A stretch of 63,966 nt of DNA, filler included, from a bacterium (GTDB taxonomy: Bacteria > UBA9089 > CG2-30-40-21 > SBAY01): the NCBI GenBank assembly GCA_040757115.1. It is 7 parts of 7 records of this genome, joined end to end, with 100 filler letters (N's around TTAATTAATTAA, not from the genome) between each part and the next. Parts side by side here need not be neighbours in the genome. Positions count along the whole stretch, not along the records: positions 1 to 29,334 come from JBFLYA010000023.1; 6 more parts are not named here. One strand, written 5' to 3'. Numbering within the stretch: position 1 is the first letter of the stretch; every line of letters starts with the position of its first letter. A program made the position numbers and the translations under genes. This document shows, one piece after another, positions 4,505-29,334 of the stretch. Under the pieces are notes generated by a model. That model did no database searches and was not told where the DNA came from. It worked only from the letters and a program-made list of their open reading frames with translations.

Positions 4505-5986
4505 TTATTCTTCATGAAAGATTAAGCCTGTAAAGATATAGATTTCTGTCTCTTTTTCTTTCCAGGCGTTTGGCGGGAGGCCCGCTTTATAACAGGTATG
4601 GGTAAGGAATTGTTCACGATTCCAACCTTGCTCGGTGGCTACCTGAGGAAGAAGTAAGCCTGAATTATACCCTTTGACCATATAAAGTCCATGTTTGCCT
4701 ATTTCAATTTGCTCAATATCATTTATTCGTGTTAATTCTGAGAGAACCGTAATTTCAATCTTTATCTGGTCTAATTCATCTTTGGTTACAGGTGAAAATC
4801 TTGGGTCTTCTGTTGCGGCGGCAATAGCCATTTTACTCACAGCTTGAGCTACTGGGGCAATAGCCTTGATGTAACCAATACAACCACGCAATTGCTTATT
4901 TTTGGTAAGGGTAACAAATGCACCCGCCGGCTCTTGAAGCTCGGGATAATCATCTACCTCTACTGGTGGAATGTGCCTGTTTTTAATATAATCTTCTATC
5001 GTCCTTCTGGCAATTTTAAGCAATACCCCTTGTTCTTCCTTATCTAACATCATAGCTTTTTCCTCCTTTTGTGCAAAGATAACTGCTCCATAGCCAACTA
5101 CTTTTGATTTATCACCAATTATTGGCACATCACCCGAATTAGCATAATTTAAAACAGTTGCCTGGTGGATTCCAAGTTCTTTGGTGACCAACATTAATGT
5201 CAAAACCGCCCCAACTCCACAAAGCAAGGTGCTACATTTCTCATGGGGTTCATTGAGCCAGGCAACTAATTCATTAATATTCATCTCTTTGATTAAAGAG
5301 AGGGTTTTTTTATCTACCTTGTTGGCTATTTCATAAGGTGGATAATGAGTCATATCGGATGAGGCAATGAATAAAATATTTTTGCCTTTACTATTTAAAA
5401 TAAGACTTCTGGCTAAAACTTGAGCGTCATTTGGATTACTCATAAGTATTGGAACAATTTTAAATTCTTTCAATACCCGTTGAAGAAAAGGGATTTCAAC
5501 TTCTAACGAATGCTCTTTCTCATGGACTTGAGGTAAAGATTTAATTTTTGGGTCTGACTTGATTAATGCAGAGGTCAGCTCAGTGTCTATCTTTACCAAT
5601 CCAAATGGTGTCTGATAAGCATCAGATGTATCAACGGCAATACCATCAAAATGGGCAAAATGGCTCATTCCTATTATCACTACGGTATCAAATGAAAGTC
5701 CTTCGAGTTGTTTAAAACAATGAGCCGCGACCTCTCCTGAATAATCATACCCGGCGTGAGGCACCATTAAACCAATTATTCTACCCTCAATCTTTTCTTT
5801 TTGGACATTATTTAAGAAGCCGTTGATTTGATTTTTTAACTCTGTTGGGTCAGCGGGATAAAAACCACCAGCCACTGCTGGCTGACGAATATTTTGAGGA
5901 ATGTCTTTGCTCGGAGTTTGTGTTTGTGAACATCCCTGAACAGGTAATAATAGGCTTAAACTGATAATAAGTAATTTGTGCCACAT
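4505..5986 (-). CDS. AmmeMemoRadiSam protein B (Memo) - protein A (AMMECR1) fusion with signal-like N-terminus
   Basis: RQPAVAGGFYP, PHAGY, EHSLEV, SSDMTHY, then GAFVTL..LRGCIG, GLLLPQV. The upstream ORF extension is repeat-derived. Confidence 0.9.
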   Translation of the reverse strand: MWHKLLIISLSLLLPVQGCSQTQTPSKDIPQNIRQPAVAGGFYPADPTELKNQINGFLNNVQKEKIEGRIIGLMVPHAGYDYSGEVAAHCFKQLEGLSFDTVVIIGMSHFAHFDGIAVDTSDAYQTPFGLVKIDTELTSALIKSDPKIKSLPQVHEKEHSLEVEIPFLQRVLKEFKIVPILMSNPNDAQVLARSLILNSKGKNILFIASSDMTHYPPYEIANKVDKKTLSLIKEMNINELVAWLNEPHEKCSTLLCGVGAVLTLMLVTKELGIHQATVLNYANSGDVPIIGDKSKVVGYGAVIFAQKEEKAMMLDKEEQGVLLKIARRTIEDYIKNRHIPPVEVDDYPELQEPAGAFVTLTKNKQLRGCIGYIKAIAPVAQAVSKMAIAAATEDPRFSPVTKDELDQIKIEITVLSELTRINDIEQIEIGKHGLYMVKGYNSGLLLPQVATEQGWNREQFLTHTCYKAGLPPNAWKEKETEIYIFTGLIFHEE

Positions 5987-6099
5987 TTTAATATATCCAT
6001 AGGAAGTAGAGAGTAGAAAGTAGAGAGTAGAGAGAAAATCTTTCCTCCACCTATGTTTCCCTATTTTCATTCTTCTCGGTTCATGTCCGTTCTCCTGAA

Positions 6100-6341
6100 G
6101 TAACCGTTCAGCCACAGAGGCACAGAGTTCACAGAGAATTAGAGAAATTAGCCACAAATGGACACGAATTAACCTGTGACATTCGATAAATGTAGTGCGA
6201 ACCTTTAGGTTCGCTTTCCTGCTTGCCAGAAGCGAGGCTAAAGCCTCGCACTACAAATCTTTTTATTATTCGTGTTCATTCGTGGTTATATATTCCCTCT
6301 GTGTTCTCTGTGACTCTGTGGCTATATCCCTGAACGGTTAC
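6100..6341. mobile_element. Family-B IS66-type MITE containing a REPIN-like doublet
   Basis: TIR GTAACCGTTCAG; 8-bp TSD CTCCTGAA (6092-6099 / 6342-6349); inserted into a family-D repeat; internal GTAG-hairpin...hairpin-CTAC. Confidence 0.85.
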
Positions 6342-6362: not shown

Positions 6363-7154
6363 TTATTTTCCTTCAGCCTCAGCTTTGAGTGGCCACTCTT
6401 CTTTATTAAAGAATGCCTTTAATTTTTCCTCAACGATTCTGGGGTTATCACCGGCTTGAATAGATAAAACACCTGTAACAATCAGGTCTTTTACAAAAAC
6501 CTCATTTTCATTTAATCTTTTTAATTTCATAGCAATAGGAATAAGAACCAGGTTAGCCAGAGCAACACCATAGAAAGAGGCAATAAACGCAATTGCCAGC
6601 GAGTGAACCGTGGTCATAATGTCTCCACCCCCCATTTTCCCCAGGGCACCGGTTAGCCCCATAATCGCGCCTAAAATTCCCATAGTTGGGGCAATACCTC
6701 CGGCAGACATAAAAATATCCTCGCCTAATTTATGTCTATGTTTCATATGGGTTAAATCTATATCAAGGATTTCCTCAATCAATTCGGGGTCTACGCCATC
6801 CACCACTAACTGAATGCCTTTTTGAAAATATGGGTCTTTAATATTTTCGATATCTGCTTCTAAAGCTAATAATCCTTCGCGTCGAGCCTTCTGAGCAAAA
6901 GCAATCATTGTTTCAATAATCTCTTTTGGTTCTTCTTCCTTATTAAAAAACATAATTTTTAGGAAGGTTGGCGTCTTCATTAATTCCTTCATCGTGAACA
7001 TCGCCCCGGTCGCCAGCACTGAGCCTGAACCAATGATGACCGCACCAGGGATGTTCAAATATCCCTGACCAACTATTCCTATCTCTTCAAGTAACACACA
7101 ACCAACACAAGCGGCAATACCACCTATGATTCCAAAGACACTAACTATATCCAT
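6363..7154 (-). CDS. motA: Flagellar stator protein MotA/PomA
   Basis: ARREGLLALE, GIQLVVDG, APTMGILG, SIQAGDNPR. Confidence 0.92.
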   Translation of the reverse strand: MDIVSVFGIIGGIAACVGCVLLEEIGIVGQGYLNIPGAVIIGSGSVLATGAMFTMKELMKTPTFLKIMFFNKEEEPKEIIETMIAFAQKARREGLLALEADIENIKDPYFQKGIQLVVDGVDPELIEEILDIDLTHMKHRHKLGEDIFMSAGGIAPTMGILGAIMGLTGALGKMGGGDIMTTVHSLAIAFIASFYGVALANLVLIPIAMKLKRLNENEVFVKDLIVTGVLSIQAGDNPRIVEEKLKAFFNKEEWPLKAEAEGK

Positions 7155-16520: not shown

Positions 16521-17005
16521 GTAACTATTCAGCCACAGATGGGCACGGATGAAACACTGAAAAATTCGTAATCCGTGTCCGTAATCAGGTTGAAGGCTGA
16601 AGGATTTTTCTCTTTCTGACTTTTGTTTTCTATCCTTCTTGATTCTCTGCCAGTGGAGGAAGATTCCACCCCCTTAATCCCCCGCCAGCGGGGGAGAATC
16701 CACCCCCTAACCCCCGCCCTTATCGTTACCCATAAGTTTTACTGGACAATGTTACATTCATTCACAATTCGCAATTCACCATTCACAATTCACAATTTCT
16801 TCCCTAAATCTTCTTAAAATGGTGAATGGTGAATTGTCAATTGTGAATTGTGAATTATTACTCTTCACGGTGTCCAGTAAAAATTGTGGGACATGCTAAG
16901 AACCCCCGCCAGCGGGGGACAACCCGCCTCTGCCCTCTGCCCTCTGCCCTCTGCCCTCTGTATTTATCCGTGTTTATCCGTATCAATCAGTGGCTGAATA
17001 GTTAC
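16521..17005. mobile_element. Family-E IS66-type MITE with nested insertions
   Basis: TIR GTAACTATTCAGCCAC; contains CCCCCGCCAGCGGGGG palindromes; supplies the last codons of the R-M gene. Confidence 0.75.
16719..16900. mobile_element. 182-bp MITE with 10-bp TSD
   Basis: Imperfect 30-bp TIR (CTTA...TTTTACTGGACA); direct repeat AACCCCCGCC at 16709-16718 and 16901-16910; inverted heptamer cargo. Confidence 0.7.
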
Positions 17006-20000
17006 CAATTATTTTTATCTCCTCCTCCCCTAAATTATACAACTTATAAATCAAACTGTCAATTTGGTCATCTATCCTTTCTATTTCCATGTCAATTTTA
17101 GTTAGATGGGGATTGGACACTTTTGCCCTGAATTCATTCATCATCAGATTAATCCTATCAAGGTTATATTCTACTGAATGAAGTTTGGCAGAGGTTTTAT
17201 AGACTAAAGTGATAAGGTTAGTTAAGATAATATCAACCACTATGCCATCTCCCCACTTTTTCTTTTTCCTTTTTTCCTTTAAGAATTTATTGATGGTATA
17301 GAAAATGAATAATCTCAAATTTTCGTCTTTAATGATTAATTCTAAAACAGGGGTATGGATTTTCGGTTCACTATCAACCTTAAATATAATTGACTCATTC
17401 TCTTCATAAATCTTTATGCCAGTAATTTGAGCTTCTGTTTGGGCAGAGATACCCGCTTTCTTCTCAATATATTTACTATACCCAGCCTTACTATAATAGG
17501 CATCTTTTAAAGATAGTGCTTCATAATCCGGATAATTGTTGATTAATTGGTCAAATCTCTTTAGCGTCAGATTTCTTTGCTTATGAAGATTAAGTATCTC
17601 ATCAACTAACTTAACCAACTCATCATACACCGCCTTTGAGTCCTGATTATCAAAGTCAATTTTATAGATAGGTATTTGTTCAATACTTTCGGGATAGACA
17701 TTTAGTTCATAACCAAGCATCAAATAGAAATAGAAGTTAATTAATTTTGAATTGATAAATCCTAATAGATACTTCAGGTCATAGTTTTTAGATGTTTGTA
17801 TTTCATCTTCTTTAATATAAATCTTATGTTTTCGTAATACACTCTGCTCAATGGCACATAATTTATGTTTTAGGACACAACAAGAAAGGGAATGGTCAGT
17901 ATAAAACCTTTCATTATCAAAACAAGCAATAAGCCCTTTCTTCCCTGTTACTTCACTTATGACTAATTTTTCATTTTCAAACAATTCCGGCAATGATGGG
18001 CGGTAGAGTTTTTCCTTATCATACAAAAACCATTTGCCTGCCGAATCTATCAAGTATCTGCTGACATTTTCTCCTTTAATCATTTTTTTACAATGTTTAT
18101 TGATTGGTTCATTTAAGTGAAATTTCTCTATGGGCACACCTCTTACGCCCCAGGAAACGGCGGCTATATCGCCAAGATAAAGGCTTTTGGCTTTAATCTT
18201 ATCAATAATGCCCAAAGTCTTTCCATTTAATTCCAATCTAAACATATTGTCAGGGGTATGTTCATAAACAGATTGTTTAACTTCAAGCACCCCATCAGTT
18301 ATTTCGTTCTCTATTTTAGGGTCTTTTTGAGGGAGAATAATCTGGATAGTATGGTCAGGCATCTTTCCTTTTTGACAAATGATAATGATATTTCGCACCA
18401 CTGCATCCTGGAATATACGATATTTTTTTAAATCAACAATGGTCAGGATTGAGGTATTTTCCAGTAAATATTTTCGCAAGTGCTGAGCATAATTTTGAGT
18501 TAAAAATGGATATGGAATGATAAAGCCCAATTTGCCACCTTCTTTAAGTAAATTTATTCCTCGTTCCATCATCCCAATGTAGATATCAAATCTTTTGACA
18601 GCGGTGGTATAATTTTTCATATAAAACATTCGCTCATCGGTTGGCAGGTTTTCTACATTGACATAAGGTGGATTGCCAATAACTATATCAAAACCTTCTA
18701 CCTCTGGGAATTCTATTTGCCAGTTAAATATCTTATTGGTCTGGTGATGTTCGAAGTATTTATTTAATGGCTCATTTAGTTTTATATTTAATTCATCACT
18801 AATTTCCTTGATTGAATCAAGGATTTCTTTATTTTCTTGCCCATTTTTAAGTTTTGCCCGCAGGCTAATAAGTGATTGTATTTTATCTTCAGATACATCC
18901 GTAGGTTCTGCCGAAATAAGTGAATTACCGACTTTAATATTTTGATTAAGGAGATAAGGTAATTTTTGTTTTCCAGACATTTTCTCAAAAGCCTTTAAGA
19001 TTAAATTTATAGTTGCTATTTCTGCGGCAGCCGAATCGATGTCCACACCGTATAAATGCTCACAGAGAATCTTGCGAGGATAGTCTAATACCTTTTGAGG
19101 TAATTGTTGTAATTCAAAACCCAGACTACTTTGTCCATGTTTTTTAAAGTATTTCTCCATTGTTTCTACCTGGAGTTTCTCTATTCGCTCATTTTCCTCT
19201 TCATAAAACTTACTTAAGATATCAAAGGCACAAATCAGAAATGACCCGGAGCCACAGGCAGGGTCTAAAATTTTAAGGTCTTTTATTTCATCAATCGTCT
19301 TACCTTGTAAATATTTTCCTAATGTCTGGTGAACAATATAATGGACGATAAATGGTGGTGTATAATAAACCCCTGCAGACCGACGCACTTCTGACTTTAT
19401 CTCTGCCTTTATCTTACCATTTTCAAGGGTAAATCTATAACCTAAATAACTTTCATAAGTTGCTCCTAAAATATCAGAGGTAAATTTACGAAAGCTGATA
19501 CGACAAAGTTCACAGATTATATCGGCTAATGTTTGGTTTGAGATAAATACTTGCTCACAAAGATGTCCTGGGGCAAAGATAGAGGTATTATGATGTTTAT
19601 CCATCATCATTGATAAATCAATCAAGGCATCAAAAAGAGAGGTTTCTTTCGCATAGGCTCCCTTTTGCAAAAACTCATTTAACATTGATTCTAAAAGGCT
19701 ATGCTGAAGAAGGACCTCTTTGTCATCTGCACATTGAATAACTAAAAGCCGACTCAATATCCGCTGAACAACATCCATCAGTATTTCAAAGTCAAAACTT
19801 CCATCTGATTTTACCAGGGCAGGATTATTCTTATTGTGGTCATAAATATTTTGGGCTAATCTAAGTCTCCAGGAGTGTAGAAATTTTAAGAATGAATAAT
19901 CTATTTCTTCTCTATGTAATTGAGCCTCCCACCATTCCAAGGATTTTGTCTTAACCTTATCTTTAGATAAAAGTAATAATTCATCTAATCTCTCAAGGTA

Positions 20001-20471
20001 TTCAGAAGGTGAATCAAAGGAAAGGATTAATTGCTCTTTATCAACATTAAAAAGATAAAGTCGTTGGAAATTGGTCAGGATAGCCCAGGGAATTTTACAA
20101 GTCCGGGCATATCGAAAGGCTTGTTTTTCATCTGAGGTTCTATCGATATATTTTTCCTGGCGGTCTGATTTAGACAGGATTTTATCAAATCTTTTCGTTT
20201 CAATAAAAATAATCGGTTCTGTCTCCAGTTCTAACCCAATATCCACAAATCCTGCTTTATCAAACGGCGTTGTTGGTCGAATATATTTTTCTCGATTATA
20301 TCTATTATCCTGACCTAAAGTATTATAGACATTCCAGCCAAGTATTAAGAATAACTTATCAACATAATTTGCCCGGACATCTGCTTCAGAAATATCTTTA
20401 TTTCCCTGTGAGTAGTATTGTGAGTAATATTTAGAAATTAGCGCTTTCAGTTCTTTTTTTATCTCTTCCAT
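16983..20471 (-). CDS. Type IIG (Eco57I-like) restriction-modification enzyme
   Basis: N-terminal D..IETK nuclease motif, GVYYTP, ILDPACGSGSF, GNPPY, and a C-terminal TaqI-like specificity region. Confidence 0.9.
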   Translation of the reverse strand: MEEIKKELKALISKYYSQYYSQGNKDISEADVRANYVDKLFLILGWNVYNTLGQDNRYNREKYIRPTTPFDKAGFVDIGLELETEPIIFIETKRFDKILSKSDRQEKYIDRTSDEKQAFRYARTCKIPWAILTNFQRLYLFNVDKEQLILSFDSPSEYLERLDELLLLSKDKVKTKSLEWWEAQLHREEIDYSFLKFLHSWRLRLAQNIYDHNKNNPALVKSDGSFDFEILMDVVQRILSRLLVIQCADDKEVLLQHSLLESMLNEFLQKGAYAKETSLFDALIDLSMMMDKHHNTSIFAPGHLCEQVFISNQTLADIICELCRISFRKFTSDILGATYESYLGYRFTLENGKIKAEIKSEVRRSAGVYYTPPFIVHYIVHQTLGKYLQGKTIDEIKDLKILDPACGSGSFLICAFDILSKFYEEENERIEKLQVETMEKYFKKHGQSSLGFELQQLPQKVLDYPRKILCEHLYGVDIDSAAAEIATINLILKAFEKMSGKQKLPYLLNQNIKVGNSLISAEPTDVSEDKIQSLISLRAKLKNGQENKEILDSIKEISDELNIKLNEPLNKYFEHHQTNKIFNWQIEFPEVEGFDIVIGNPPYVNVENLPTDERMFYMKNYTTAVKRFDIYIGMMERGINLLKEGGKLGFIIPYPFLTQNYAQHLRKYLLENTSILTIVDLKKYRIFQDAVVRNIIIICQKGKMPDHTIQIILPQKDPKIENEITDGVLEVKQSVYEHTPDNMFRLELNGKTLGIIDKIKAKSLYLGDIAAVSWGVRGVPIEKFHLNEPINKHCKKMIKGENVSRYLIDSAGKWFLYDKEKLYRPSLPELFENEKLVISEVTGKKGLIACFDNERFYTDHSLSCCVLKHKLCAIEQSVLRKHKIYIKEDEIQTSKNYDLKYLLGFINSKLINFYFYLMLGYELNVYPESIEQIPIYKIDFDNQDSKAVYDELVKLVDEILNLHKQRNLTLKRFDQLINNYPDYEALSLKDAYYSKAGYSKYIEKKAGISAQTEAQITGIKIYEENESIIFKVDSEPKIHTPVLELIIKDENLRLFIFYTINKFLKEKRKKKKWGDGIVVDIILTNLITLVYKTSAKLHSVEYNLDRINLMMNEFRAKVSNPHLTKIDMEIERIDDQIDSLIYKLYNLGEEEIKIIGNYSATD

Positions 20472-20748
20472 AGTAGGAAGTATTATATCAAACAATCCCT
20501 TCAAATGCAAGCAAAAAATTGCGACCTGTGCGGTTAGAAAATTAAGTGGTGTCTGAAAATAACTCTAATAGTGAAATCTATGCAGATTTGGTGTCCAAAA
20601 GGGATTTCCTCCAAAGAGCAAAATGCAAAAAGCAAATATAAAAATTAGTAACCATTCAGGGATATAGCCACAGAGTCACAAAGAACACAGAGGGAATATA
20701 TAACCACGAATGAACACGAATAATAAAAAGATTTGTAGTGCGAGGCTT

Positions 20749-21928
20749 ATGGTTTTTGCAAAAGTAAGTTCCACTTTTTTAACCTGGTTTTATAAGAACA
20801 GGTTTTAGTCCAAGAGAAGTGAATACTTGCTCTCTTTGATCTTTGACATCTTCAAGAAAGTCTTGAGCTCCTTGGATGACTTCTTGTATTTCGGTCCAAG
20901 GGTGATTATGGGTAACACAGCGGCGCATCCATCTCCATAATCGTTCCATAGGGTTTAACCATGGAGCATATGTCGGTAAGGGTAACAACTCGATACGGGA
21001 ATGTTTCTTTAGCCAATCTTCAACTGAGTTGCTAAAATGAACTCCCCAATTGTCCAAAACAATCGTAATTCGTTTAGCCCACCAATATGTTTGCTCGACT
21101 TGCTCTAAGAATGTAATGAAAGAAGTAGATGCTCCTGTGAGACTAATTAGGTAAAGGATTTTTCCATATACCGCGTTGACTGCTCCAAAAATACAGCGTG
21201 TACTCTCTGAGGTGCCCTTACCAACCTGAGGAGGTTTACTCCCTTTGGGAAAGTAACATTTGCTTAATGTAGGTCGACGTCCCAGGTGACATTCGTCCTC
21301 ATAAAGAAATACATTCTCATCAGAGCAAACTTGTGCTTTTTGACGACGTTCTTCTATCAATGCAACTTTGTTTAGATATTTAGGATCTGGGCTCCAACAT
21401 CGATGAACTGCGCATTTGAAACGGATTCCTGCGCGGCGAAGTGTCCTCCATACAGTAGCTTGAGAAACCTGAATGTTTTTTAGAATTATCTCTTTCAACA
21501 GAACTAATGTCCAGGTAGAGTGAGGTTCTCCATAAGCTCTTGGATTACTTCGGGCTGCTTGCACTAATTGTTGTGTTTGTTCTGGGTTTATTTTTTAATG
21601 CCGTCCCTGTCGAGGACGGCTATATAACCCTGAAATTCCCTCTTTCTCATAGCGACGTATCCAGTAGCGGACTTTTTTCTTAGACATCTGCAAAGCATCA
21701 GCAATGTTTGGTACAGAAACCTTCTTAGCTGATAACTGAATTATTCTAACGCGCCGCCAGAGACATGCAGAGGGAGGCCTTCGAGAGAGAAGAGTCAATT
21801 CTTCTTGCTCTTCTTCAGTTAATATTTTGACAAAGATCATTTTTTCCCTCCTTTGTCGATAGATTTTTCTCTACTATATTTATCGGCAAGAGAGGCAAAA
21901 AAGTGTAACTTATTTATGAAAAAATCAT
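20749..21928 (-). mobile_element. IS630-family insertion sequence
   Basis: Imperfect ~30-bp TIRs; HTH ORF plus DDE ORF; ends uncertain by 1-2 nt. Confidence 0.9.
20779..21840 (-). CDS. IS630 transposase, frameshifted near 21595 (ORFs 21595-21840 and 20779-21564)
   Basis: YEDE, VLDN, LPTYAPWLNPMERLW; the upstream HTH ORF ends GRH* next to an A7 run. Confidence 0.88.
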
Positions 21929-24973: not shown

Positions 24974-25492
24974 CTATTCCTTTTCCTCATGCCCATAATT
25001 TGAATAATATATCTTTTCCCGGCTATCTAAGTCATTACAATTAACTCTGATCTCGCCGGTAGTTGAACTGTATATCCAGCCGCCGATATTACTATCTGCT
25101 ATATCTTGAGCCGTCATCAGTTCTTTTTGTGTATCAATAACCTTAACATTGTTAGAATTGGGATTAGCACCACTGGGGGGATGAGACCTTAATCTCGCCT
25201 TTGGGATTTCTAGCATATAATTTGGGACAAAAGCAGGCACATCCTGCCCACCAATATTATGCGGAGTATTATCAAGGCTTTTTGGGAAAATTCCCGGATT
25301 GGTACTATAATAGTTATTAATTGCTACCCGTAGATTAGCCAGATGGTCCTTTGTTTTTGCCTCCCTTGACCGTGTCAGAACTTGAGGTATTCTTGCCACG
25401 ATAATTAAGAGTAAAATGGCTAAGATGAGCACTACTATCATCAACTCCACTAAAGTAAATCCCTTTTTATTTTTTAACATTTTTTTTAACAT
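24974..25492 (-). CDS. Type IV pilin / type II secretion pseudopilin-like protein
   Basis: KKGFTLVELMIVV prepilin cleavage motif. Confidence 0.9.
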   Translation of the reverse strand: MLKKMLKNKKGFTLVELMIVVLILAILLLIIVARIPQVLTRSREAKTKDHLANLRVAINNYYSTNPGIFPKSLDNTPHNIGGQDVPAFVPNYMLEIPKARLRSHPPSGANPNSNNVKVIDTQKELMTAQDIADSNIGGWIYSSTTGEIRVNCNDLDSREKIYYSNYGHEEKE

Positions 25493-25979: not shown

Positions 25980-26067
25980 TGGTGCCGGAAGCGGGATTTG
26001 AACCCGCACACCCATTCGGGCACATGGCCCTCAACCATGCGTGTCTACCATATTCCACCATCCCGGC
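25980..26067 (-). tRNA. tRNA-Leu (GAG)
   Basis: Acceptor stem GCCGGGA/TTCCGGC plus ACCA, anticodon arm CATGG-TTGAGGG-CCATG, long variable arm, GGTTCAAATCC T-loop. Confidence 0.96.
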
Positions 26068-26128: not shown

Positions 26129-26524
26129 TTAATAATAAATATATATCTCCAGATCAGGTCTTGTATTTCGATGGAGCTGACGGAAATCACGGTCAAAATT
26201 TATTTCACTCGTATAACTCAGGACAAGTCTTTTGTTTTTCCCGGTTCCCATTTTGTCTATTAATGAAGTAGGATATTTTAACACTGGCTGTTCTTCTAAA
26301 TCTACATCTTCATTAACTAACCGAAATCCCGGAATTAATCTACCCTTACTTTTTATATAGTCTTCTTTTACTTCCTTAACTAAATAAGTTCGTTCCTTTC
26401 GCTCAAAATAGACATTTGATTTGATTAATACTTTTTTATCCGTAAGTTCTTGTTGAAGAATCTGTAAATTATCCTTTCTTAACTTAGCCCATGGGTCTAT
26501 TTCTCTATCTTTTTGATAAATCAT
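26129..26524 (-). CDS. Hypothetical protein
   Basis: 131-aa ORF with AAGGAAGG SD, between sepS and the tRNA. Confidence 0.7.
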   Translation of the reverse strand: MIYQKDREIDPWAKLRKDNLQILQQELTDKKVLIKSNVYFERKERTYLVKEVKEDYIKSKGRLIPGFRLVNEDVDLEEQPVLKYPTSLIDKMGTGKNKRLVLSYTSEINFDRDFRQLHRNTRPDLEIYIYY

Positions 26525-26569
26525 AAATAACCTTCCTTAATAATTATTATACCCAAAAATCTCATAATG

Positions 26570-28138
26570 TCAACAATTTTTTATTTGTGCTTTTAGTCCA
26601 AAAAACAATGGTCCACCTACCTCTATTTTTTTGTTATTAGCTGTAATATATCGATTTACAAAATCAGGGATAAAAAGGTTAATCTCACTGGGGCGTTTAG
26701 CCATTTTGTAGCGTTCATCAATGGTATTTTTACCTTCTTTAATTGCCTTTTCTAATTTAGCCACAAAGCCATTGACAATATTATTCAAATAGATTAAGTT
26801 AGTCTTAATTCCATCTACTCGAGCTAAATTAGCCAGATTGCTTAATTTCCCTTTTTGTAATTGGCTCGATAATCCTATGATATTGCCTTCATAGACATAT
26901 ATTTCATTAAAAGCGGCAAAAGAAAGCATTGGTTTTCCCACATCCCAATTATAGACCCAAACTTTTATCTGTTCATCTTGATATGCTAAAATTTCTACAG
27001 GTCCAATATCATCCTTATGCAAAGTTGCAGTTTCAATTAACGATTGAGCTAATTTTTCCCCCATAGCCGTTGTTGGAAATCCTTCTACGGTTAGTTCTTG
27101 AGTAATATCTTCATCAGTTAATTTTTGTTCTTCCCCATAGACTAAAGTTCGTATATCAGATACCTTTTGTTCAAGCATGGCTAATCTTTCTACCCCAAAA
27201 CCTAAGTTAAATACAGGGTATTTAATATCATAATTTGCCAATGCCACCGGGGAATAAAATCCAATATTAGCCACTTCAATCTGTTGAGTTCCTATTTGCG
27301 AATAGACCTCATATTCTGAACCTGGTGTGTAGTATTTACTCGTAACCTTCTTTTTAATAAATTCGGGTTTGCCAAACCCCAGTTCAAATAAGACCATTTT
27401 AGTAAATTCAATTCCATCTTCTGCGGTTATTTCATCATTCATAATTACGACTGAGGCAGATGTGCTTTCGTATAAATGATGCGGGTCAAGTCTTTGTTCC
27501 CGTCTAAATCGTGAACCAATGGAAAAAAGTTTCACCGGAATTTTAGTTTGATTTTTAGATAAATAATTAAACCATGCCGCGGTCATATGTGAGCGTAAGG
27601 TAAATTTAGTTGGAATTGGTTTTAACGCCTTAAATTCTGGAAAAACCCGGTCAATGATTAAAGTCGCTATTTCTTCTTTAATATCAAGATTTTTGACTAA
27701 TTCCTCAATCAAGTCATCACTTTCTATTGTTCCTTTTTTAAAGGCACGGAATACCTCTTCTATGTTTTTTTCTTTTTTAAAATCAGGTATAATCTTTTTT
27801 ATTTCCTCAATCTTACGATTACTAATGCCAATATCAGGTCTTGGTAAGCCTGCCAGGTAAAATATCCTATCTAAAATCACCGGTGCCTCTGGTCCATACT
27901 GACGATATACCTCGCCTTCCTCAATAATCGCTGGATTTATTATTTCATCTAATCCAAGTCGTAAGAATACCTCACGGAATTTTAGATTAAGTGAAATAAT
28001 CGGATGTTCTTTACCTCGAGTGGGTTGTTCCCAGAGCATTTTTCGTCCGCTTAAATTAACTAATTTTGCTGTTTCTAACCATGTTTGTTCAAAATCCTTT
28101 TTAGCCTTTTCCTTAATTTTTCTTATATTATATTCCAT
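26570..28138 (-). CDS. sepS: O-phosphoseryl-tRNA(Cys) synthetase (SepRS)
   Basis: QYGPEAPVILDR.FYLAGLPRPDIG, TLRSHMT..WF, KLFSI..FRREQ..D, NLGFGVERLAM; PheRS-related class II fold with a SepRS-type C-terminus. Confidence 0.92.
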   Translation of the reverse strand: MEYNIRKIKEKAKKDFEQTWLETAKLVNLSGRKMLWEQPTRGKEHPIISLNLKFREVFLRLGLDEIINPAIIEEGEVYRQYGPEAPVILDRIFYLAGLPRPDIGISNRKIEEIKKIIPDFKKEKNIEEVFRAFKKGTIESDDLIEELVKNLDIKEEIATLIIDRVFPEFKALKPIPTKFTLRSHMTAAWFNYLSKNQTKIPVKLFSIGSRFRREQRLDPHHLYESTSASVVIMNDEITAEDGIEFTKMVLFELGFGKPEFIKKKVTSKYYTPGSEYEVYSQIGTQQIEVANIGFYSPVALANYDIKYPVFNLGFGVERLAMLEQKVSDIRTLVYGEEQKLTDEDITQELTVEGFPTTAMGEKLAQSLIETATLHKDDIGPVEILAYQDEQIKVWVYNWDVGKPMLSFAAFNEIYVYEGNIIGLSSQLQKGKLSNLANLARVDGIKTNLIYLNNIVNGFVAKLEKAIKEGKNTIDERYKMAKRPSEINLFIPDFVNRYITANNKKIEVGGPLFFGLKAQIKNC

Positions 28139-28147
28139 TATGTTGTA

Positions 28148-28176
28148 ACTATACCATTTATTTATCTCTTTGTCAA
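28148..28176 (-). promoter_or_regulatory. sepS promoter, near-leaderless
   Basis: TTGACA-17-TATAGT, 9 nt before the ATG; no SD. Confidence 0.6.
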
Positions 28177-28569
28177 ATAGTTTTTTTCTTGTACAGTTCT
28201 GAAGAGTAAATTTTCATGATTTTTATTTTTAAGATACAATTTGGGGACAAGATGGTAGGGGACATTAGAAAGGACAGTTCTCTCCTGTGTCTCCTGATAT
28301 ATCAAAATATCGGAGTCAAAAAAAAGATTGTCAATATGATAAAAATATGATATGATATGGATTAAAGAGGGAAAAAGAGGGGTTGCTGGAACAAAATAAG
28401 GTAGCAGTTCTAAGAAGAATTCAGGCGGATTTGGTAAGGTTGAGACAGGTTTTTCAGGATATTATCTACCTCAATCAGTTGTCTGGTAAAGGCAAACAAT
28501 AATCCCCTGGTGAAGTTCTTAAAACTACCAAAAACCTTGACAATGTTTAAGTCCATTGCCTTTGCTCAT

Positions 28570-28790
28570 TATAGCACTTATTAATCGAAATTTGACATAG
28601 ATATGGCTATGAAATTCCAAATCACAAATTCCAAATTCCAAATAAATTCAAATAACCAAAATTCAAAACATTACCCCCATAGTTTGTATTTAGGATTTGA
28701 AATTTGGTGTTTATTTGAGATTTGGTGCTTGGGATTTGGGATTTTTTTTACTTATCCACTCTGAGTAAAGTTTTGACTAATAACTGCTAT
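28570..28790. repeat. MITE-like element with inverted heptamer tracts
   Basis: ATAGCACTTATTA / TAATAACTGCTAT ends; AAATTCC versus GGGATTT tracts. Confidence 0.55.
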
Positions 28791-28894
28791 ACTTCTGCTG
28801 GAAGAGTTGAAAGAGTAGAAAGAGTTGGAAGTGTTGGATGAGTTGAAGGAGTTTCTTCACTTAGACTTACACTGTCACTTACACTGTCACTGAC

Positions 28895-29018
28895 ATAGGT
28901 AAGACTTAGGAAAAATTCAGGGAGTGAAGTTTTGAGGATGGTTTCCCAAAATGTCACTAATTTCCTGCATAAATAGAGTCTATAGTCTTGTGTCTGATGT
29001 CCAGTGTCTGAATCACAG
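28895..29018. repeat. Repeat shared (inverted) with 36871-36990
   Basis: Near-identical reverse complement ending CTGAATCACAG. Confidence 0.75.
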
Positions 29019-29334
29019 TAAAAGATTAATAAACAACGAAACACCCGAAATGCACAAAAAAAAGGAAATTTCTGTCTCTGGTGAATAGATTTTAATTTTT
29101 TCTCTGCGTCTCTGTGTCTGTGCGGTGAACGGTTACCAAATAGGATACCGGTGCGAAATATTCCACAAGTAGTTTAATGCAAATATCAAAATGTCCAAAT
29201 CAAAAGGACAAAGCAAAATGCAAAAATACTTGTAAGGCAATAAAAAAAATCAAATATTAAATATTAAAAATCAAAAATAAGAATAAAAGAATTCCTTAAT
29301 TTTGATATTTGCTCTTTGATTTTTGATATGATAT

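Follow-up and report, generated by a model that had tools for sequence, protein, structure and literature searches.

A full-length SepRS gene in an uncultivated groundwater bacterium, together with unlinked SepCysS and G37-type tRNA-Cys genes, points to tRNA-dependent cysteine synthesis

The stretch of DNA analysed here (63,966 bases, hereafter the window) comes from the genome of an uncultivated groundwater bacterium (4.32 Mb in 462 contigs, 36.8% G+C, 99.87% complete, 1.41% contamination) and carries sepS, the gene for SepRS. To our knowledge, only two aminoacyl-tRNA synthetases exist beyond the canonical twenty. SepRS is one of them and also the main tool for adding phosphoserine to the genetic code. 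The window is made of seven contigs joined end to end, the first of which (C145, positions 1-29334) is the real contig carrying sepS. The original prediction, based on the sequence of the window, had described a full-length SepRS of 522 residues on a contig with bacterial serS, motA and pilin genes, preceded by a sigma-70 promoter and followed by an open reading frame (ORF) of 131 residues and a tRNA-Leu. All these features are found on C145, where the motA and pilin genes correspond to a MotA/ExbB-family gene and an N-methyl pilin-like gene, respectively:

270-1544, contig C145: serS, a typical bacterial gene.
6363-7154, contig C145: MotA/ExbB-family gene, also typical of bacteria.
Beyond the pilin-like gene in minus-strand order on C145, minus strand: gene annotated as encoding a GAF/HD-domain protein.
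24974-25492, minus strand: N-methyl pilin-like gene, on the same contig C145 as sepS.
25980-26067, minus strand: tRNA-Leu(GAG), the sole tRNA in the window.
26129-26524, minus strand: 131-residue ORF, a conserved gene with no assigned function (ORF call and ratio of nonsynonymous to synonymous substitution rates, dN/dS).
26546-26573, minus strand: putative sigma-70-like promoter of the 131-residue ORF (12/12 consensus match).
26570-28138, minus strand: sepS, encoding a SepRS of 522 residues (TIGR00470 match and alignment to a solved SepRS).
28148-28176, minus strand: putative sigma-70-like promoter of sepS (consensus match).
28194-29334, no strand: mosaic of five or more dispersed repeat families, reaching from upstream of sepS to the end of C145 (blastn against the genome).

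Judged by its sequence, the 522-residue ORF is a genuine, intact and full-length SepRS. The sepS equivalog model TIGR00470 matches it from end to end (residues 4-520, model positions 4-533 of 533) with 475.7 bits, i.e., 95 above the cut-off of 380.65, whereas the models of PheS (PheRS alpha), which the original prediction had named as the competing identification, reach 78.2 and 75.7 bits, far under their own cut-offs. Residues 1-520 align to residues 11-549 of the Methanocaldococcus jannaschii SepRS (2du7_A, E = 2.6e-114), and every PDB sequence with a match at E <= 1e-10 (eight distinct ones) is a SepRS. The domain order comprises the canonical N-terminal extension, the class II core, the insertion domain and the anticodon-binding domain; a Pfam search detects the class II ‘F’ core and leaves the SepRS_C match under its cut-off (19.5 vs. 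26.9 bits), while no PF08915 editing domain is found by Pfam in this SepRS, nor anywhere in its genome. Across 23 aligned SepRS, five positions are invariant (H184, T186, W189, N311 and G313), the last two forming N311-L-G313, which is the Asn-X-Gly motif that, according to Mukai (2022, PMC8762117), never varies in true SepRS but is altered in SepRS-like proteins. Thr186, FRREQ and GFGVER are kept as well, along with the STSAS and FNLGFGVER stretches. The Thr of HMT and the Ser residues of Ser-Ala-Ser are presumably those lining the phosphoserine pocket. The first of these motifs reads HMTAAWF (residues 184-190), as the original prediction had it, and HMTSGWF, given there for archaeal enzymes, is the M. 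jannaschii form, but this difference is no anomaly: the consensus of the 23 SepRS being HMTAxWF, HMTAAWF is a local form of it and, therefore, ordinary variation. Moreover, the anticodon-binding stretch GNIIGLS and the helix next to it, which are deleted in the three aligned SepRS from Chloroflexota, are both present, this region having been tied to the recognition of 1-methylguanosine at position 37 (m1G37) of the tRNA (Mukai 2017, PMC5424206). Finally, sepS evolves under purifying selection, with dN/dS values of 0.11-0.19 against four orthologues.

SepRS is encoded exactly once in the genome, and the other components of the pathway lie outside the window, which, as originally stated, is devoid of SepCysS. 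The only SepCysS copy of the genome sits on a contig of 1,289 bp (C385), which begins in a dispersed repeat, and scores 510.4 bits for a cut-off of 365.25. It starts with MNLIRTREE, without a conserved N-terminal (SepCysSn-like) extension, which is missing from SepCysS at 13 of the 15 loci inspected across the phylum, this one included; free-standing SepCysE or SepCysSn were not searched for. A single CysRS, of the bacterial type, is encoded on contig C231 (545.9 bits vs. a cut-off of 340). As for tRNA-Cys(GCA), there are three genes, all with U73, one having G37 (on C278) and two having A37 (on C408 and C420). The G37 gene has a G+C content of 67.6% and the anticodon loop UUGCAGG, that of the A37 pair being CUGCAAA. 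In a sample of 25 species genomes of the phylum, that of the window counted, the G37 tRNA-Cys is found by BLAST in all six genomes of the family of the window bacterium (hereafter f1) vs. none of the 19 others, and among its copies, base pairing is preserved by compensatory substitutions in the acceptor stem (G5:C68 to A5:U68), with positions 19 and 56 covarying too. The genes for SepRS, SepCysS and tRNA-Cys thus occupy three unlinked loci in this genome, without any operon, and they are never adjacent in the 29 loci scanned across the phylum (15 for SepRS, 14 for SepCysS).

Two of the tRNA-Cys genes show structural peculiarities of their own. The G37 tRNA-Cys (C278:24089-24162; f1 orthologues L134-L140) has the T-loop UUUAAAU and GA in place of G18G19, and its sole GG paralogue carries UUCGACU, which amounts to an A19:U56 / G19:C56 covariation. 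The third tRNA-Cys (GCA, A37; C420:10337-10411) combines an odd T-loop (UGCAAAU) with a D-loop lacking GG; its contig has a G+C content of 42.8% vs. 36.8% for the genome, and similar copies exist in genomes of family f4.

Genes for the tRNA-independent synthesis of cysteine are absent from the genome as assembled. CysK, CysM and CBS have no match at E <= 1e-20, the best match of the PALP family being threonine synthase (327 bits), while the best CysE match reaches 49.7 bits for a cut-off of 210.65, and the pyridoxal-phosphate enzymes of Cys/Met metabolism (cystathionine type) yield partial matches only (36.6 bits at most). Since neither CysK/CysM nor CysE nor a cystathionine enzyme is found, SepRS–SepCysS is the sole recognisable cysteine-making route of this genome. 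On the side of substrate supply, SerA/PGDH is present (699.6 bits).

At the level of the phylum, SepRS exceeds its cut-off in 16 of the 25 genomes; SepCysS is found in 15 at E <= 1e-30 (13 over the cut-off) and CysRS in 14 (E <= 1e-30), whereas CysE exceeds its cut-off in seven and CysK in five, all of the latter in f2, the sister family of f1 within the same order. Family f1 has CysRS in 6/6 genomes, SepRS and SepCysS in 5/6 each and CysK in 0/6, whereas f2 has both CysRS and CysE in 6/6, CysK in 5/6, and neither SepRS nor SepCysS (0/6). In families f3, f6, f7 and f8, none of the ten genomes has CysRS. Not one of the 25 genomes combines CysK with SepRS. Altogether, 11 genomes (G012-G014, G017-G024) lack CysRS, nine of which have SepRS, and the two others, which are 84% and 87% complete, both have SepCysS. 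No G37-type tRNA-Cys is recovered by BLAST from these 11 genomes; the A37 type is detected by ARAGORN in 22 of the 25 genomes, including eight of the CysRS-less ones, and mostly lies beside tRNA-Val(GAC). The CysRS-less bacteria of this phylum seem to have the indirect route as their only one. Three states exist in sister families (SepRS only, both systems, CysRS with CysK only), and because they stand side by side in one phylum, the way in which one cysteine system replaces the other becomes directly comparable. We found no published account of the complementary pattern of CysK and SepRS or of the CysRS-less families, some of which may be covered by the figures and main supplementary table of PMC8762117.

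To place the window SepRS among its homologues, a quick tree was inferred with IQ-TREE from 97 rows under the LG+C20+F+G4 model, using posterior mean site frequencies (PMSF) and the Shimodaira–Hasegawa-like approximate likelihood-ratio test (SH-aLRT) for support; six rows had been dropped beforehand, either as duplicates (L040, L041 and L090) or as partial (L054, L094 and L095). Every SepRS of the phylum belongs to a single bacterial clade (27 rows, SH-aLRT 100), the neighbours of which are enzymes from Bathyarchaeota, Hadarchaeota and Asgard archaea, Bathyarchaeota being the closest non-bacterial relatives of the window SepRS (45-49% identity). Hence, the term ‘archaeal-type’ used in the original prediction holds only loosely, the clade itself being all-bacterial. 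The SepRS of Dehalococcoidia group apart from it as a clade of their own (support 100), and the Parcubacteria row has a long branch. Within the 27-row clade, a first subclade (support 85) unites the window SepRS and those of f1 (support 98) with proteins that bear the labels Poribacteria and Firestonebacteria and with two metagenome proteins that bear none. A second subclade (support 100) gathers families f3-f7, a record titled Nitrospirae bacterium HyVt-268 and others; its SepRS lack the first ~40 residues, and the three long frames tested all bear the archaeal ThrRS editing domain PF08915. When the 17 rows known to come from the phylum are constrained to a single clade, the approximately unbiased (AU) test rejects the topology (log-likelihood difference of 173.3, p = 2.5e-8); this group was chosen after viewing the tree, and several unlabelled rows may come from the phylum as well. 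The phylum holds two SepRS lineages, the AU test being silent on the direction of any transfer.

The fusion of PF08915 to the N-terminus of SepRS is common in the sister families (L018, L020, L021) and in many metagenome proteins (P0020-P0031 and others). One of these, P0023, is a protein of 903 residues with both SepRS (PF01409, PF18006) and SepCysS-type (PF05889, PF00266) domains, apparently a fusion, and groups with the HyVt-268 SepRS (support 94).

According to our reading of the genome, which we hold with good though not full confidence, the bacterium has a working SepRS–SepCysS pathway for making Cys-tRNA-Cys, alongside a CysRS for free cysteine. SepRS would charge tRNA-Cys with O-phosphoserine, after which the unlinked SepCysS would turn Sep-tRNA-Cys into Cys-tRNA-Cys, while CysRS would charge free cysteine, either recycled or imported. 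Most likely, the G37 tRNA-Cys would be the substrate of SepRS and the A37 tRNAs those of CysRS, the two sets perhaps overlapping. Under this scheme, SepRS–SepCysS is most likely the sole de novo cysteine route of the bacterium.

Several observations weigh against this reading. To begin with, the contig of SepCysS stops ~15 codons short of the end of the gene (the match covers 1-355 of the 370 model positions), so that the 3′ end is missing. Then, canonical SerC (TIGR01364) is not found in the genome, its best match (~50-51 bits) being a PhnW/AGXT-like class V aminotransferase; a class I aspartate-aminotransferase-like gene adjoins serA, and both genes are candidate aminotransferases only, neither being assignable to the SerC role. 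A gene not found in an assembly of 462 contigs is not thereby shown to be absent, which applies to the cysteine genes too. There is no convincing Trm5 either, the best PF02475 match (33 bits, in a frame of 186 residues) allowing no conclusion, as the model also matches most control bacteria; m1G37 on the G37 tRNA-Cys is therefore unsupported. TrmD, for its part, requires G36, which tRNA-Cys lacks. As regards tRNA choice, the bacterial SepRS studied earlier accepted G37 as well as A37 tRNAs in vitro (PMC5424206), and the CysRS-less families of the phylum have A37 tRNA-Cys only, which leaves a strict split between SepRS and CysRS unproven. More generally, it is from sequences that we infer catalytic activity, the tRNA used by each enzyme and the physiological role.

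Among the alternatives, the one that fares best, while still being unlikely in our opinion, is that SepRS–SepCysS serves as a redundant or conditional second route (e.g., under high sulfide or Fe-S demand), while CysRS would charge free cysteine, either imported or produced by some enzyme that escapes recognition. It would accommodate the intact CysRS in all six f1 genomes and the true CysE (248 bits) kept in one of them, and the coexistence of both routes has been discussed by Mukai (2022, PMC8762117). Yet, neither CysK/CysM/CBS nor a cystathionine enzyme is found in a genome estimated to be 99.87% complete, and this alternative does not square with CysK and SepRS never co-occurring across the 25 genomes, nor with the family that gained CysE and CysK being the one that lost SepRS and SepCysS. 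Less probable still is that the gene encodes a SepRS-like protein specific for another amino acid, or that it is the decaying remnant of a transfer: degenerate SepRS-like genes do occur in Thermoplasmata and putative Deltaproteobacteria (PMC8762117) and the SepRS_C match is below its cut-off, but the gene retains Asn-X-Gly as well as the pocket residues of HMT and SAS, its equivalog score is 95 bits above the cut-off, its dN/dS values are 0.11-0.19, and the genome also maintains SepCysS and a dedicated tRNA.

The integrity of C145 itself bears on a last alternative. The order GAF-HD / pilin / tRNA-Leu / 131-residue ORF / SepRS is kept at 95-97% nucleotide identity in a genome of the same genus. 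It also recurs, at 66-81%, in another genus of the family, in which ~1 kb is inserted between the ORF and sepS. The G+C content along the contig is even (0.32-0.42), further bacterial genes (argJ, maf and prephenate dehydrogenase) are found on it, and its dispersed repeats are shared with tens to ~200 sites on other contigs of the same genome. Considering the conserved gene order, the even G+C content and the genome's own repeats, C145 is not chimeric, contrary to the possibility raised in the original prediction. Archaeal contamination or a chimeric join in the metagenome bin, to which the fragmented assembly, its 1.41% contamination and the Bathyarchaeota relatives might lend some colour, is barely credible, since the gene order recurs in two other assemblies, the repeats are those of the bin and SepRS belongs to a bacterial-only clade spanning 16 genomes of the phylum.

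Regarding these repeats, the successive segments of the mosaic upstream of sepS have ~2-4, 60-90, 15-28, ~200 and ~22 genome copies according to blastn, with units of ~70-380 bp; the unit with ~200 copies is a ~70-bp one at 29064-29140. These repeats sit at contig ends, including those of C145 and of the 1.3-kb contig of SepCysS, and probably account for the fragmentation of the assembly into 462 contigs by ending contigs. The remainder of the window (29335-63966) consists of six further whole contigs (C147-C151 and C196), separated by spacers of the form N44 + TTAATTAATTAA + N44. Features past position 29334 are consequently without physical linkage to SepRS. Elsewhere on C145, a fused restriction-modification enzyme of 1175 residues, Eco57I/MmeI-like (16983-20510, minus strand), adjoins a DDE_3 transposase (20779-21564, minus strand), and positions 4505-6157 encode a protein of 550 residues fusing Memo-like and AMMECR1 domains.

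Upstream of sepS, the promoter-like site consists of TTGACA, a spacer of 17 nt and TG-n-TATAGT, i.e., 11/12 consensus matches with an extended TG, in line with the sigma-70 promoter first proposed. Only 9 nt (28139-28147) separate the -10 hexamer from the ATG of sepS, without any Shine-Dalgarno sequence in between, which suggests that the sepS mRNA would be leaderless or nearly so. The promoter-like site of the 131-residue ORF overlaps the stop codon of sepS and is followed by a AAGGAAGG ribosome-binding site. In 3.8 kb, there are two sites with at least 11/12 matches, whereas first-order Markov simulations (n = 1000) predict 0.24 (P(>=2) = 0.029); a looser scan reveals no overall excess (15 sites vs. 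17.0 +/- 4.1). Both promoters are putative consensus matches, and the sequencing runs found, three from one study, are all of DNA.

The 131-residue ORF is, by its sequence features, a real gene: beyond the promoter-like site and the ribosome-binding site, it has dN/dS values of 0.16-0.21 and a conserved C-terminus (DLEIYIYY). It is confined to this phylum: only 19 homologues are found among 5.8 billion proteins, all unnamed and without a Pfam family, and the ORF itself has neither a Pfam nor an NCBIfam match. A homologue exists in 20 of the 25 phylum genomes, with 6/6 in the SepRS-less family vs. 0/2 in one SepRS-bearing family; it lies beside sepS in two genera only, is located on other contigs in most genomes and is missing from three SepRS-bearing genomes. 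A role as a SepRS accessory protein (SepCysE-like) is rejected in view of its presence in all six genomes of the SepRS-less family and its absence from three genomes with SepRS. Because its distribution does not track that of SepRS and it neighbours sepS in two genera only, the ORF is not counted in the pathway. The tRNA-Leu(GAG) adjoins an ORF homologue at three of the 11 related loci scanned, all three in f1. The AlphaFold2 model of the protein (predicted local distance difference test, 79.6; predicted template modelling score, 0.73) retrieves nothing from the PDB with Foldseek at E <= 0.001. With VIA-align, the best Z score is 6.9 (YojF, 1njh), followed by 6.6-5.2 (3fm2, 3na2, 5exv and 2ph0), a range common for unrelated models. 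Going by entry titles, only 3fm2 and 5exv are haem-binding among these matches, while we take 3na2 and 2ph0 to have the ChuX/HutX fold; in the ESM Atlas, ChuX/HutX clusters are reached at template modelling scores of 0.51-0.53, below threshold. The fold may resemble ChuX/HutX, but with scores in the noise range, this is a lead only. The structure search proposed for this ORF has yielded no match above noise.

Taken jointly, the distribution of the genes and the SepRS tree allow a broader scenario, which we offer tentatively, as it is rather less likely to be right than wrong. The indirect pathway would be ancestral in the phylum and still be the sole one in 11 of the 25 genomes. In f1, a second SepRS lineage, not of the editing-domain type, would have arrived or persisted with its own G37 tRNA-Cys, so that SepRS and this tRNA would form a naturally orthogonal channel beside CysRS and tRNA-Cys(A37). 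Family f2 would be the end point, with CysE and CysK gained and SepRS and SepCysS lost. If true, these families would be a stepwise living record of bacteria swapping tRNA-dependent cysteine synthesis for a free-cysteine route. The SepRS/G37 tRNA-Cys couple of the window bacterium is also a candidate natural orthogonal pair from a mesophilic bacterium.

Each single feature of this system has a published precedent, and a bacterial SepRS alone is not new: bacterial SepRS, including the coupling to G37 tRNA-Cys, were published in 2017 and 2022 (PMC5424206, PMC8762117). In particular, SepRS and SepCysS have been described in operons, some of which include tRNA-Cys, of Chloroflexi (Dehalococcoidia) and Ca. 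Parcubacteria and found active in vitro (Mukai 2017, mBio, PMC5424206), the Parcubacteria bin DG_74_2 having a G37 tRNA-Cys along with a bacterial-type tRNA-Cys. The window bacterium resembles these in encoding the same two enzymes within a bacterium and, like DG_74_2, in having two types of tRNA-Cys, but its SepRS belongs to a separate clade of the tree and its genes are unlinked instead of forming an operon; moreover, the SepRS of Chloroflexota lack the motif and helix after GxIY, both of which are present here. Compared with the bacterial clades of Mukai et al., the window SepRS shares the 27-row clade with the HyVt-268 record (L042) and keeps the anticodon-binding motif region, in a genome that has a G37 tRNA-Cys, and the PF08915 fusion recurs in other families of its phylum. 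It differs in lying in the sister subclade, with the Poribacteria- and Firestonebacteria-labelled proteins, and in the scattering of the genes over three loci. With respect to the bacterial SepRS fused to the PF08915 editing domain (Mukai 2022, PMC8762117), it has the canonical N-terminal extension in place of that domain. The SepRS of M. jannaschii (2du7, 5x6c) aligns with it over its full length and agrees with it in domain order and catalytic motifs, apart from HMTSGWF in place of HMTAAWF. SepCysE, which belongs to the SepRS–SepCysE–SepCysS transsulfursome, is stated to be absent from bacteria by Mukai et al. In the methanogens that have both SepRS and CysRS (e.g., Methanococcus maripaludis, Methanosarcina), the indirect route serves cysteine biosynthesis, and deletion of a transsulfursome component results in cysteine auxotrophy (cited in PMC8762117). 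These methanogens are similar to the window bacterium in that both routes coexist, but here the host is a bacterium, CysRS is of the bacterial type and two structurally distinct tRNA-Cys species are present. To these known systems, the locus adds a well-resolved case, in which a near-complete genome combines an archaeal-like full-length SepRS, a G37 tRNA-Cys, and CysRS with A37 tRNAs, with no genes found for free-cysteine synthesis.

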